Virus record (IMG/VR): IMGVR_UViG_3300021338_000069
Span: 1-28,099 of that record
Origin: a virus
Taxonomy: Duplodnaviria; Caudoviricetes
DNA length: 28,099 nucleotides
Direction: 5' to 3' (one strand)
Part shown: positions 5,133 through 27,480 of the stretch, piece by piece
Layout of the letters: each line of letters starts with the position of its first letter
Position numbering within the stretch: the stretch's first letter is position 1
Translations under genes and position numbers: made by a program
The notes under the pieces: generated by a model
The model's input: only the letters and a program-made list of their open reading frames with translations
Told to the model about the DNA's origin: nothing
Database searches by the model: none

Positions 5133-5199
5133 GCATGAAATCAGGATGTTGTGGGTTGGAATGTTGGCGACGCTAAATCTTGGAGTGAGGGGAACGGGC

Positions 5200-5832
5200 A
5201 TGAACGGGATGGAACAACTGGTCAGGGACATCGAGGCGCGCTACTGCAAGGACGGGCAGGGCGCCGACAGGTCACCGATCTTTCGGCGCGGCAAGCCATA
5301 CTGGTACGCGCTGCGTGTCGTGCCGCAGCGAGAGGATCAGGCGGAGGCATGGCTGCGGTTGCGGGGGGTCTACGCCTTCCACCCGGTGCTGACGCGCAAG
5401 GCGAAACGGTTCGGCGCGATGCGGGAATATCAGCGCCGCTATCTGCCAGGGTATGTCTTTGCGCGCTTCCCCGGAGATCCGGTGGTGCATGCGGTCACCA
5501 GCGGCCCGTTCATCACCGGCGCGCTGTGCCGGTCCGATGGCACATGGGGCGCGCTGGAACCGAAGAAGCTGCGCGCCATCCACCAGATGCGCAAGGTGGA
5601 CGCCGAAGCGGACGCCGCGCGCAAGGCAGAGCGGGCACGCCGCCGCCGGCAGCGTCTGGTGGGAGAGGGGGATAGCGCGCTGTTCCGCAGCGGGCCGTTC
5701 TCCGGGTTCACCTGCGAGGTGGTGGAACTTCGGGCCAGCGGCGGTGCGATGGTGCGGTTCAGCCTGTTCGGACGCGAGACAAGCGTCGAGGCGTCGACCG
5801 GCGATCTGGTTCCGTTGCGCAAGACAGGTTGA
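5200..5832 (+). CDS. NusG-family (NGN + KOW) transcription antitermination factor, phage paralog
   Basis: NGN motifs WYALRVVPQRE and YLPGYVFARF. KOW-like GDSALFRSGPFSGFTCEVVE...VRFSLFGRETSVE. The start may be 5200 or 5209. Confidence 0.9.
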   Translation: MNGMEQLVRDIEARYCKDGQGADRSPIFRRGKPYWYALRVVPQREDQAEAWLRLRGVYAFHPVLTRKAKRFGAMREYQRRYLPGYVFARFPGDPVVHAVTSGPFITGALCRSDGTWGALEPKKLRAIHQMRKVDAEADAARKAERARRRRQRLVGEGDSALFRSGPFSGFTCEVVELRASGGAMVRFSLFGRETSVEASTGDLVPLRKTG

Positions 5833-5858
5833 CAGATCGGCGCGGCAGCGGTTACCGT
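5829..5858 (+). promoter_or_regulatory. Sigma70-type late promoter overlapping the stop codon of the NusG paralog
   Basis: Consensus TTGACA at 5829-5834 contains the TGA stop. An 18-bp spacer leads to TACCGT at 5853-5858. The position is equivalent to lambda pR' after Q. Confidence 0.65.
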
Positions 5859-5985
5859 CGCGTCCCAATAGCCCTATGCCGGTGACCCCCTCTGCCAAAG
5901 CAGACCGTGGCCCGTGCGGGTGGGCGGCGGGCTCCGGTTCAGAACCCAGGTTCAGAAAACGCCGAGAGTGACACGCCTGCAATGT

Positions 5986-6020
5986 GCCCGGAGGTATCAT
6001 CCCTGCCGGGCCTTTCTTTT
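5986..6020 (+). terminator. Leader intrinsic terminator (tR'-like)
   Basis: GCCCGG-AGG pairs with CCT-G-CCGGGC (5986-6011), followed by CTTTCTTTT. Confidence 0.6.
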
Positions 6021-6096
6021 GTCCGGGTGGAGCAGATGGTAGCTCGGCGGGCTCATAACCCGCAGGTCGCAGGTTCAAGTCCTGCCCCGGCAACCA
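6021..6096 (+). tRNA. tRNA-Met(CAU), initiator-like, with an irregular acceptor stem
   Basis: D arm GAGC/GCTC (A11-U24), anticodon arm GCGGG-CTCATAA-CCCGC (three G-C pairs next to the loop), T arm GCAGG-TTCAAGT-CCTGC, discriminator A and encoded CCA. The acceptor GTCCGGG/CCCGGCA has two terminal mismatches, or a bulged U if the tRNA starts at 6020. Confidence 0.88.
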
Positions 6097-6105
6097 ATTC
6101 GGACG

Positions 6106-6167
6106 CGTCGCGGGGGCGACGTTAGGCGCCGGCCCGTCCTCTCCTCCTCCCCGGGCGGGCTGGTGCT
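6106..6167 (+). ncRNA. Hairpin pair; the second has a CCUCCUCCC anti-Shine-Dalgarno loop (cuckoo/alpha-r14-like module)
   Basis: Small hairpin CGTCGC/GCGACG at 6106-6121. A 15-bp stem 6125-6139/6153-6167 with four G-U pairs closes the loop TCTCCTCCTCCCC. Confidence 0.6.
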
Positions 6168-6180
6168 GATCGGAGATCGC

Positions 6181-7026
6181 ATGGCACGACTGACGACGGT
6201 TCGCCCGAAGGTGGGTGCGGGCAAGCCGCGCATCGACAATTCGGTTGCGGATGCGCGGCGGCACGATGCGGTGCGCCGGGCGGAGCAGGACTGGCGGCGG
6301 TGGTACAAGACGAAGGCGTGGTCGCTGTTGCGCGATCAGGTTCTGATCCGCGACGGCATGACCTGCTGTCAGACCGGGGTGCCTCTGGTCGGGCGTGGCC
6401 GGGCGCCGAATGCGCCGGTGGTCGACCATCGGCGGCCGCATCGCGGGGACCGTGCGCGGTTCTTTGATCCCGGCAACTGCCAGTCCGTCAGCAAGCTGTG
6501 GCACGACAGCGTCAAGCAGGCGATCGAGCGCGCGGCGCAGTCGAGTGGCGCGGCTCAGACGCATCCGGAGTGGATCGGTCGGTCGCTGGTTCCGGTCGTT
6601 CTGGTGGCCGGGCCGCCATGTGCTGGCAAGTCGACGTTGGTGCGGTCGCGGCGCGTACCGGGCGATCTGGTGCTGGATCTGGATGAGATCGCGTCGATGC
6701 TGTCCGGGCAGGACCTGCACGGGTGGGATCGTCGACGCTGGCTTGGCCCGGCGTTGCGGGCGCGGAACGCCGTGCTGGCGCAGCTGGGCCGGCGGGCGGA
6801 CTGGCCCCGGGTCTGGTTCATCGTTTCGGAGCCGAAGGCGGAGGTGCGGGACTGGTGGCGCCGGGCGCTCGGGGTGTCGGAGGTGGTGGTGGTCGCGCCG
6901 GATAGTGTGGGCGATAGCCTGGCGCGGATGCCTGCGGGGCGTGGCGACGGGACCAGGTCTGCAATCAGTCGGTGGTGGCGCGACTACAGCAGCGATCCGA
7001 GGGATGAGGTTGTGTCCGGGCGCTGA
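6181..7026 (+). CDS. Packaging-associated HNH endonuclease fused to a P-loop kinase/ATPase (AAA_33-like) domain
   Basis: N-half: WYKTKAW...VLIRDGMTC...VVDHRRPHRGD...FFDPGNCQSVSKLWHD (HNH). C-half: VLVAGPPCAGKSTLV (Walker A) and DLVLDLDEI. GGAG RBS at 6172. Confidence 0.85.
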   Translation: MARLTTVRPKVGAGKPRIDNSVADARRHDAVRRAEQDWRRWYKTKAWSLLRDQVLIRDGMTCCQTGVPLVGRGRAPNAPVVDHRRPHRGDRARFFDPGNCQSVSKLWHDSVKQAIERAAQSSGAAQTHPEWIGRSLVPVVLVAGPPCAGKSTLVRSRRVPGDLVLDLDEIASMLSGQDLHGWDRRRWLGPALRARNAVLAQLGRRADWPRVWFIVSEPKAEVRDWWRRALGVSEVVVVAPDSVGDSLARMPAGRGDGTRSAISRWWRDYSSDPRDEVVSGR

Positions 7027-7117: not shown

Positions 7118-7591
7118 ATGGGCGATCTGGACCTGTTCGGTGACCCGGTTCGTCATCCGTCTGGCCGACGGGGGCGGCCGGCGCATCGGTACTCGCAGGA
7201 AAATGCCAACAAAATCATGATGTTACTTGCTCTTGGGTGGGGCAAGGAACGGATCGCAAATGCCTGCCACATTTCTGTTCCAACGCTGAACAAGCATTAT
7301 TTTTCGATCCTGAAGACGCGCGACATGCAGCGCGATCGACTGGTCGCATGGCAGTTCCAGAAACTGGCCGCCCAGGTCGAAAAGGGAAACGTCGGCGCGA
7401 TGCGCGAGCTGAACCGGATGATCGAGAAAAACGATCAGATGAACGCATCCGCATTCCTGGATAGCGCCGCGAAACAGGGGGACAAGCCCAAGCCGAAGGG
7501 CAAGAAGGAGATCGACGCCGGCGCTGCGCAGGAGGCAGAGGAGGCGCTGGAACGCGAGCTGGGCCTTGGAGGCGAGCATGGCCCGCACTGA
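7118..7591 (+). CDS. Terminase small subunit
   Basis: GRRGRP motif and HTH-like LGWGKERIANACHISVPTLNKHY. Directly upstream of and overlapping terL, with a GGAG RBS. Confidence 0.75.
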   Translation: MGDLDLFGDPVRHPSGRRGRPAHRYSQENANKIMMLLALGWGKERIANACHISVPTLNKHYFSILKTRDMQRDRLVAWQFQKLAAQVEKGNVGAMRELNRMIEKNDQMNASAFLDSAAKQGDKPKPKGKKEIDAGAAQEAEEALERELGLGGEHGPH

Positions 7592-9284
7592 ACACCTGCC
7601 GATGTTCGCATGCCCGGACTGGTGGGAGCGGATTCAGCGCGGCGAGACGCCGATGGCAGATGTCCCGTTCAACGAGAAGCGGGCGGCCAAGGCGCTGGCG
7701 TTCTTCAACCGGCTGCGGCTGCCGGACGTGGCCGGTAACCCGCCGCTGAAAGAAGCCTGCGGCGACTGGTTCCGCGACGTGCTGGTGGCCTTTCTTGCCA
7801 GCGAGGATCCCGAGACCGGCGCGCGGCTGGTGTGGGAATGCCTGTGCATGGTCCCGAAGAAAAGCTCGAAGTCGACCTATGTCGCGGCGCTGGCGCTGAC
7901 CGCCCTCTACCTTGAGGAAACGCCGCGGGCGCAGATGCTGCTGATCGGGCCGAGCCAGAACATCAGTGCAAGGTGTTTCAAGCAGGCAAGCGACATGATC
8001 CGTTTGGATGAGATCTTAGCAAAGGTGTTTCACATCCAAGACTACTCCCGTCAAATCACAGTTCGAAATTCTGGGTCGCAGCTGCACGTCAAGACGTTCG
8101 ACACCTCTATCGTCACCGGGGAAATCCCGGTGCTGACGATCATCGACGAGCTGCACGAGCTGGGGAAAAAGAAACAGGCGGCCTCGGTCATGCAGCAGAT
8201 CCGTGGCGGCGGCATCACCATGACAGGCGGTCAGGTGATGATGATCACCACCCAGTCCGACCGGGAGCCGACCGGGATCTGGAAAGAGGAGCTGAAGAAG
8301 GCCCGCGCCATCCGGGACGGCCGTGGCGGATCGGCACCGATCATGTTGCCGGTTCTCTACGAGTTCCCGCAGGATCTGCAGAAGGACGAGGCGTTCTGGC
8401 GCAACCGGGACAACTGGCACCTGGTGCTGCCGAACCTAGATCGATCCATCAGCCGGGCGCGGCTGGAGGCGGAATACGAGAACAACGGCAGCGCATCGCC
8501 GGAGGCAGAGCAGATCTGGGTCAGCCAGCATCTGAACATCGAGATCGGTCTCGGCCTGCATTCCGAGCGCTGGGTCGGAGCCGATTACTGGCCGAAGCGG
8601 GAAACCGGCGGGCTGGACCTCGATACGCTGCTGGAGCGGTCCGAGGTGGTGGTGGCAGGCGGAGACATGGGCGGCGCCGACGACCTTGCGTCGCTTCACC
8701 TGATCGGGCGCTGTGCGCAGACGCGCCGCTGGCTGAGCTGGACGCGGGCCTGGTGTATTCCGGATGTGCTGGAGCGCCGGCAGGAAATCGCGCCGAAGCT
8801 GCGCGACCTGGAGGCGTCAGGCGACCTGGTGATCGACGAGGAGCCGACAGCGCATGTGCGCGATATCGTCGACCTTTGCGACCGCGTTCAGGCGGCCAAC
8901 CTGTTCCCGGATACGTCGGCCTTCGGGCTGGACCCATGGGGCGTTGCGGCGCTGGTGGATGAGCTGCTGGAGCGCGGCTATCCGCTGGAGTTCATCTACG
9001 GCGTCCGGCAGGGCGGCTGGCTGAGCGGCACGATCAAGGGGCTGGAGCGGCGGCTGATGGATGGCACGTTCGAGCACGGCGGCCAGCCGATCATGACCTG
9101 GGTTCTTGGCAATGCCAAAGCCGAGGCGAAGGGTAACAACGTGCTGATCACGAAGGCGCGCTCCGGGGTCGGCAAGATCGACCCGCTGATCGCGATGTTC
9201 AACGCGGCGATGCTGATGGACATGAACCCGGCGGCGGCGCGCGCCGCAGCGCTGAGCATTCCGAACGACTACATGGTGGGCTGA
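7578..9284 (+). CDS. Terminase large subunit
   Basis: Walker A variant VPKKSSKST, Walker B IIDELH, coupling motif ITTQS, nuclease motifs GDMGGADDLAS and KIDPLIA. GGAGG RBS before ATG 7578. Confidence 0.93.
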   Translation: MARTEHLPMFACPDWWERIQRGETPMADVPFNEKRAAKALAFFNRLRLPDVAGNPPLKEACGDWFRDVLVAFLASEDPETGARLVWECLCMVPKKSSKSTYVAALALTALYLEETPRAQMLLIGPSQNISARCFKQASDMIRLDEILAKVFHIQDYSRQITVRNSGSQLHVKTFDTSIVTGEIPVLTIIDELHELGKKKQAASVMQQIRGGGITMTGGQVMMITTQSDREPTGIWKEELKKARAIRDGRGGSAPIMLPVLYEFPQDLQKDEAFWRNRDNWHLVLPNLDRSISRARLEAEYENNGSASPEAEQIWVSQHLNIEIGLGLHSERWVGADYWPKRETGGLDLDTLLERSEVVVAGGDMGGADDLASLHLIGRCAQTRRWLSWTRAWCIPDVLERRQEIAPKLRDLEASGDLVIDEEPTAHVRDIVDLCDRVQAANLFPDTSAFGLDPWGVAALVDELLERGYPLEFIYGVRQGGWLSGTIKGLERRLMDGTFEHGGQPIMTWVLGNAKAEAKGNNVLITKARSGVGKIDPLIAMFNAAMLMDMNPAAARAAALSIPNDYMVG

Positions 9285-27406: not shown

Positions 27407-27480
27407 TGGAGCGGCCGACCAGAATCGAACTGGCGCACAGAGAGTGGAAGTCTCCTGCTCTACCACTGAGCTACGGCCGC
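27407..27480 (-). tRNA. tRNA-Gly(UCC)
   Basis: Reverse complement reads GCGGCCG TA GCTC AGTGGTA GAGC A GGAGA CTTCCAC TCTCT GTGC GCCAG TTCGATT CTGGT CGGCCGC T CCA. Gly identity elements G1-C72, C2-G71 and U73 are present. Confidence 0.9.

Follow-up and report, generated by a model that had tools for sequence, protein, structure and literature searches.

The window, a 28,099-nucleotide stretch of DNA that we analysed at its full length, is a lambdoid prophage of marine bacterial type. Its genes run in the order methylase, primase, NusG paralog, tRNA-Met, HNH, terminase, portal, protease and capsid. The NusG paralog (5200–5832, plus strand; Pfam NusG, E = 2.6e-7; phrog_6386, transcription antiterminator, E = 3e-16) is followed on the same strand by a predicted late promoter (5829–5858; TTGACA, an 18-nt spacer and TACCGT) whose TTGACA overlaps the stop codon of the nusG paralog, by a conserved structured leader RNA that belongs to no Rfam family (5868–5985), by a terminator-like hairpin with a U-run (5986–6020; −14.7 kcal/mol) that abuts the tRNA, and by a tRNA-Met(CAU) (6020–6096; called by ARAGORN and Rfam) whose 8-nt 5′ acceptor strand contains a bulged U. 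Behind the tRNA, still on the plus strand, lie an 18-nt hairpin of 7 bp with a GGGG loop (6105–6122), the single cuckoo-type hairpin that is the subject of this analysis (6125–6167; 15 bp, loop at 6140–6152) and a GATC-GGA-GATC spacer (6168–6183) that holds a GGAG ribosome-binding site (6172–6175) and an ATG (6181). This ATG opens a plus-strand gene (6181–7026), upstream of the terminase genes, for a protein that joins an HNH endonuclease to a P-loop (AAA_33-like) domain; the large terminase subunit is encoded at 7566–9284. A tRNA-Gly (27407–27480, minus strand), close to where the lysis region ends, is possibly the integration site.

The phrog_589 HNH match covers residues 1–124 of the HNH gene product and the phrog_4581 match residues 13–277, spanning both parts, and the AAA_33 match falls below the Pfam cut-off. 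When the viral contigs were searched with this protein, only its own phage matched. The HNH/P-loop protein is likely a packaging cofactor. The HNH terminase cofactor of the HK97 gp74 type is likewise encoded directly upstream of the terminase genes (PMC9410871); the window protein differs in its fusion to a P-loop domain. Rhodobacteraceae are the source of the named homologues of the NusG paralog, so the host likely belongs to this family.

The paralog contains the NusG N-terminal domain and scored 23–36 bits against the curated models for NusG, RfaH, UpxY and LoaP, below all of their cut-offs (100–145); it had no match in the annotated phage collection. It is likely a late antiterminator, and it occupies the place that Q has in lambda. 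Lambda Q and its late promoter have the same layout, in which antiterminator, promoter, leader, terminator and cargo follow one another. We assembled 61 NusG-paralog loci, partly redundant, 58 of which extend at least 500 nt downstream, and found the leader behind the nusG-paralog stop codon in 50 of them (34 distinct leaders). A TTGAC-N18-TANNNT promoter was present in 33 of the 34 distinct leaders, the −35 box enclosed the stop codon in 31, and a terminator-like hairpin with a T-rich tail occurred in 29; these promoters and terminators were counted by our own criteria, and a generic scan called neither in the window. We aligned 33 of the 34 distinct leaders together with that of L360, a metagenomic homologue described below. 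Compensatory changes occurred at 12 of 20 predicted pairs, and 92% of the alignment cells were paired compared with 37–46% in slid controls, the structure having been derived from the same alignment. The leader RNA had no match in Rfam. We conclude that the leader, roughly 115 nt long, with its promoter and terminator (5829–6020 in the window; L037–L097 and L360) is the most conserved non-coding element here, and the original prediction was right to place the hairpin behind a NusG-paralog leader. This leader is a ready test substrate for the predicted phage NusG-paralog antiterminator. In the window phage alone, a 9-nt direct repeat (5936–5957) adds an extra hairpin to the leader. An arginine-rich segment between the two NusG domains (5590–5660), partly kept in the family consensus, is a candidate RNA-binding segment.

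The tRNA was examined in an alignment of 18 copies, 17 of them distinct, in most of which the search pattern had fixed the 5′ half and left the 3′ half free (loci L102, L106, L109, L112, L118, L125, L128, L134, L136, L138, L157, L163, L164, L078, L079 and L457 among the family). In the register with the bulged U, the acceptor stem pairs fully in all 17 distinct copies, with compensatory changes in the Sinorhizobium phage phiLM21, and in most copies a terminator-like hairpin lies directly 5′ of the tRNA. Bacterial initiator tRNAs are marked by a CAU anticodon, a purine 11–pyrimidine 24 pair, an anticodon stem with three G–C pairs at its foot, and a 7-bp acceptor stem with C1–A72 unpaired. The CAU anticodon is present here, and A11–U24 was found in 17 of 17 copies. 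The window copy has all three anticodon-stem G–C pairs; the third occurs in this one alone of the 17 distinct copies, L360 being among the 16 without it. The acceptor stem ends in a U–A pair with a bulged U or, read in the canonical register, has two mismatches, in place of an unpaired C1–A72 on a 7-bp stem. Measured against these determinants, the family appears initiator-like but not a standard initiator, and the initiator identity that the original prediction had given this tRNA is doubtful. In phiLM21 (KJ743987), a NusG-like antiterminator, HNH, tRNA-Met and terminase are annotated in one block, and its tRNA shares the acceptor-stem register of the window tRNA; there, however, HNH precedes the tRNA, and exact CCTCCTCCC was not found in the 5-kb block. 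Among phiLM21-like prophages, a tRNA is found in 16 of 25, and almost all of these tRNAs are Met or fMet (PMC12429752). The family of bulged tRNA-Met genes is a lead in its own right.

In the hairpin itself, 6125–6139 pairs with 6153–6167 to form a stem of 15 bp, with G–U pairs at 6125/6167, 6128/6164, 6131/6161 and 6137/6155, below a 13-nt loop (6140–6152; UCUCCUCCUCCCC) that contains the motif CCUCCUCCC at 6143–6151. Folding gave −30.0 kcal/mol for the plus strand and −18.3 kcal/mol for the minus strand, which confirms the claim of a 15-bp stem whose four G–U pairs favour a plus-strand RNA. Details of the position had to be amended: the start given for the element, 6106, falls in the separate GGGG-loop hairpin, and the spacings of 29 and 5 nt are offsets, the true gaps being 28 nt from the CCA to the stem and 4 nt (GATC) from the stem to the GGAG. 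The GATC-GGA-GATC arrangement is present as described, although its pairing is worth just −0.5 kcal/mol. Ensemble folding in context leaves the loop open (probability of being unpaired, 0.73–1.0). The motif occurs once on each strand of the window; a Shine–Dalgarno reading of the minus-strand motif was rejected, as no start codon lies downstream of it in the sequence. We also rejected pairing between the GGGG loop of the first hairpin and the CCCC of the second loop, which is lost in L360. The folding energy of the hairpin region lies within chance (z = −0.95 and −1.37) in this GC-rich stretch. What speaks against chance is comparative: enrichment of the motif and one homologue.

Modules of cuckoo RNAs are hairpins of 24–50 nt with a loop of 9–27 nt and a helix of at least 6 bp (PMC4615179), a geometry that the window hairpin shares (43 nt, 13-nt loop, 15 bp, CCUCCUCCC in the loop). 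A cuckoo RNA, as defined in the same source, consists of 2–4 adjacent hairpins, each with the motif and no more than 10 nt apart (PMC4615179); the window has one plus-strand motif, and the neighbouring hairpin is 18 nt long with a GGGG loop. At gathering level, Rfam returned the two tRNAs alone. In a permissive scan, the best non-tRNA matches were CcsR1 (19.4 bits; gathering threshold 65.3) and ar14 (14.3 bits; gathering threshold 58.8), and in both alignments the convincing part was one module. The kinship with the cuckoo, alpha-r14 and CcsR RNAs that had been proposed, with an Rfam scan as its check, is therefore upheld as a likeness of modules, in that these families rank first after the tRNAs, yet far below their gathering thresholds. 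The cuckoo RNAs CcsR1–4 (RF02791) and ar14/NfeR1 (RF02344) of Alphaproteobacteria likewise have GC-rich, module-sized hairpins with CCUCCUCCC in an open loop (PMC4615179, PMC8034643, PMC10746234); their alphaproteobacterial setting and their release from a longer precursor are both likely shared by the prophage hairpin. The prophage hairpin differs in its one motif hairpin compared with 2–4, in its sub-threshold scores and in its setting, a late leader behind a tRNA, whereas CcsR lies beside a DUF1127 gene. No DUF1127 gene, a trait of the CcsR CIN1 subgroup, adjoins the hairpin, which is flanked by the NusG paralog, the tRNA and HNH. We conclude that the hairpin is one cuckoo/CcsR-type module and not a cuckoo RNA by the family definition. 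In its main text, the paper that defines cuckoo RNAs (PMC4615179) uses neither the word phage nor the word prophage, and the available passages of PMC4179960 do not mention the motif for the R. sphaeroides 0381_3′ RNA, which was therefore not taken as a precedent. Titles and abstracts of the literature, mostly non-subscription, held no description of cuckoo or anti-Shine–Dalgarno hairpins in prophages, of bulged phage initiator tRNAs or, with passages of PMC7593976 included, of a phage NusG-paralog leader.

To assess chance occurrence, we searched viral contigs for the minimally flanked motif and for a permuted version of it, the control, at equal GC, and removed duplicate contexts; a reversed-pattern control was set aside because it overlaps the motif. 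The scan extended over 40 of 64 parts for the motif and 27 of 64 for the control, and all counts are among the matches listed. Strong hairpins, defined as at least 11 bp and −20 kcal/mol by thresholds that were chosen after the test set had been seen, were capped by the motif in 12 of 105 cases and by the control in 0 of 106 (Fisher P = 1.7e-4); among the same matches the counts were 16 versus 4 at looser and 9 versus 0 at stricter thresholds. Of the 12 cases, one is the hairpin at 6125–6167, one falls in a proline-rich coding frame, two belong to multi-module RNAs and the remaining eight are single hairpins between genes, in about five families; near-duplicates occur among the 12. The contexts of the strong modules vary, from behind a capsid or a portal gene to a place among small genes. 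This enrichment, in such varied contexts, argues that single cuckoo-type hairpins are a real, scattered class in phage contigs. One such hairpin lies between the major capsid gene and the head–tail adaptor gene of another contig (L259:690–730). Behind tRNA T-loops, the motif was not in excess by raw counts (29 versus 31 for the control); with a loose loop criterion, 13 of the 29 and 6 of the 31 counted. With the hairpin alone as query, phages and plasmids gave matches at chance level, and 401 genomes of the family gave short matches alone, CcsR-like arrays among them. Four unrelated phages (L010, L020, L022 and L027) have a tRNA followed by a hairpin with a C/U loop, the order in L020 being tRNA-Met, hairpin and portal gene.

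The original prediction had joined leader, initiator tRNA and hairpin in a cassette and tied it to the HNH gene behind. Among the 61 NusG-paralog loci, the exact motif lay within 1,200 nt of the nusG-paralog stop codon in the window phage and in 0 of the 60 others, one-mismatch matches occurred in four loci, and tRNA-Met was present in four and the hairpin in one. A search on the 5′ end of the tRNA gave 67 matches, 16 of them tRNA-like, and the 5′-end pattern was found in 2 of the 401 family genomes. Of 20 distinct copies of the bulged tRNA-Met type, two are followed by the motif, those of the window phage and L360. The latter was obtained from a metagenome scan that demanded both the tRNA end and the motif (at least 119 loci from 41 of 64 parts, two of them tRNAs), so it was set aside, and the count behind unselected relatives of the tRNA is 0 of 18. 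The claim of a fixed cassette thus fails, and the loop is largely not kept in syntenic phages, where its loss had been named in advance as grounds against the proposal. Searched against the annotated phage collection, the 381-nt region matched tRNAs or terminator plus tRNA alone, among the 40 matches listed. Because it is missing at this site in all 18 unselected tRNA relatives, the hairpin is dispensable. One or two cuckoo-type hairpins lie 3–7 kb upstream on the same strand in 4 of 47 related viral records and in the L078 prophage contig, and in L316 one follows a small gene divergent from the repressor. Hairpins at these upstream positions show that the module is optional, changes position and moves independently of its neighbours.

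L360 is 72% identical to the window over 993 nt and keeps leader, tRNA and hairpin. Its hairpin has five differences in 43 nt, and the stem changes are one compensatory change, one consistent change and one broken pair, the loop having been fixed by the search pattern. Outside the fixed letters, the excess of conservation is weak (P = 0.07 for the whole hairpin; P = 0.007 for the core only). The counterpart of the first hairpin (6105–6122) holds the same position with a replaced sequence. Downstream lie a phrog_1924 'minor tail' gene and then the small terminase gene, with no HNH gene next, so the sole homologue that has the hairpin does not support the proposed tie to HNH.

We tentatively propose that the hairpin is optional cargo which, after read-through, is released from the tRNA trailer as a single-loop repressor acting in trans, a reading that we prefer to all others but consider slightly more apt to fail than to hold. 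It is suggested by a loop that is unpaired, as a seed acting in trans should be, and by precedents in the family: cuckoo RNAs repress by pairing of their loops with ribosome-binding sites, the three loops of NfeR1 are redundant (PMC10746234), and RNase E frees CcsR RNAs from a precursor (PMC8034643). Because the NfeR1 loops are redundant, one loop could suffice for repression. The NusG paralog would allow read-through of the leader terminator, and the hairpin would then be transcribed. Processing of the tRNA would likely cut the hairpin free as a small RNA of about 45–70 nt, and its open CCUCC loop would pair with G-rich ribosome-binding sites in trans and likely damp translation, the damping of some mRNAs probably setting in after the switch to lytic growth. 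We found no terminator 3′ of the hairpin, and a free RNA would therefore require cleavage close to the HNH start. Of 25 phage start regions, that of the phage's own nusG (5175–5200) pairs most strongly with the loop (−18.1 kcal/mol), and this value is also the best when compared with 45 relatives; in L360 the pairing is not kept and reaches just −12.7 kcal/mol. Feedback of the loop on its own nusG is at most a weak lead from modelled pairing. A wider version, in which a one-hairpin cuckoo RNA would serve alphaproteobacterial temperate phages as a plug-in repressor, strikes us as rather improbable. It would be fused here to a bulged tRNA-Met, so that an antiterminated precursor gives rise to an anti-Shine–Dalgarno RNA and an initiator-like tRNA or decoy, and the two together would divert initiation away from host and early mRNAs, perhaps including the phage's own nusG, towards late mRNAs.

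The modules that we inspected are intergenic and in sense orientation, a placement that fits a role in cis equally well. Once the tRNA has been excised, the late transcript might start with the two hairpins, which would protect its 5′ end; the C-rich loop might bind a protein or a distant site on the same RNA and tune stability or translation. Stem-loops at the 5′ end do protect mRNA, strong modules occupy sense-strand intergenic sites behind the capsid gene (L259), behind the portal gene (L230), before the portal gene (L020) and behind the gene divergent from the repressor (L316), and L360 fills the first position with a hairpin of different sequence. Protection needs no fixed loop, however, yet the loop sequence is enriched, and most relatives have no hairpin of this kind ahead of their first late gene, so we regard this role as somewhat unlikely. 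The hairpin might instead be a passenger: recombination would have brought a piece of a cuckoo RNA into a cargo slot, where it does little or nothing for the phage. Consistent with a passenger, the hairpin occurs at 2 of the 20 distinct tRNA loci, and one of these two had been selected by its presence; the slot holds several unrelated elements or is empty, and host CcsR arrays contain similar modules. Against this, the hairpin has been kept in a phage that is 28% diverged while the adjacent hairpin turned over, and it recurs with unrelated stems in other prophages, which makes the passenger explanation unlikely in our judgement.

Much less probable than either is a pseudoknot in cis, also put forward in the original prediction, in which the loop would mask the neighbouring GGAG and keep the HNH gene repressed. 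The loop sequence UCUCC can indeed pair with GGAGA at 6172–6176 (duplex −5.6 kcal/mol; −7.6 kcal/mol with flanks), and in L360 a GGAGG 8 nt past the stem reaches −11.9 kcal/mol, although any ribosome-binding site pairs with such a loop. The linker from stem to site is only 4 nt, short for the geometry of a pseudoknot, and opening 3 to 7 bp of the stem to make room would cost 6.8 to 15.4 kcal/mol even without a pseudoknot penalty, so the balance against the duplex is unfavourable. L360 has no HNH gene next to the hairpin, and most relatives, judged by eye, have an HNH-like gene directly behind the terminator without a hairpin. HK97 gp74 is a packaging cofactor needed late, and because this HNH protein is a cofactor of cos cleavage (PMC9410871), a brake on the HNH gene is in principle not needed. 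Least probable of all is a dedicated system in which a NusG-gated leader, an initiator tRNA and a mimic of the 16S tail jointly redirect translation initiation. The three parts do occur together in two phages that are 72% identical, and 3 of 13 searched viral records with the tRNA have a cuckoo-type hairpin elsewhere. The rarity of the tRNA (4 of 61) and of the hairpin (1 of 61) at NusG-paralog loci speaks against it, as does the want of three anticodon-stem G–C pairs in 16 of 17 tRNA copies, L360 included; a fixed three-part system is not supported.

Small RNAs, StxS among them, are known to arise from the late-promoter region of lambdoid phages (PMC7873438). StxS and similar RNAs of lambdoid E. 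coli phages are also non-coding cargo between an antiterminator-controlled late promoter and the late genes, and StxS acts on a ribosome-binding site; it is produced during lysogeny, from the transcript that stops at the terminator (PMC7873438). The prophage hairpin, by contrast, lies beyond the terminator and would need read-through, and the antiterminator is a NusG paralog, not Q. If a single loop does work in trans, the hairpin would define a minimal cuckoo RNA, and phages would be borrowing a module of host stress small RNAs to tune translation. It would then offer a small system for the question, raised in PMC4615179, of global versus selective blockers of ribosome-binding sites. In eight loci (L058:3300–3375, L078:3355–3430, L079, L089, L112, L118, L146 and L163), the same slot holds a different, two-hairpin element, with no Rfam match in three such loci scanned or in L088; its loop regions are mutually complementary, as in a kissing interaction or a switch.
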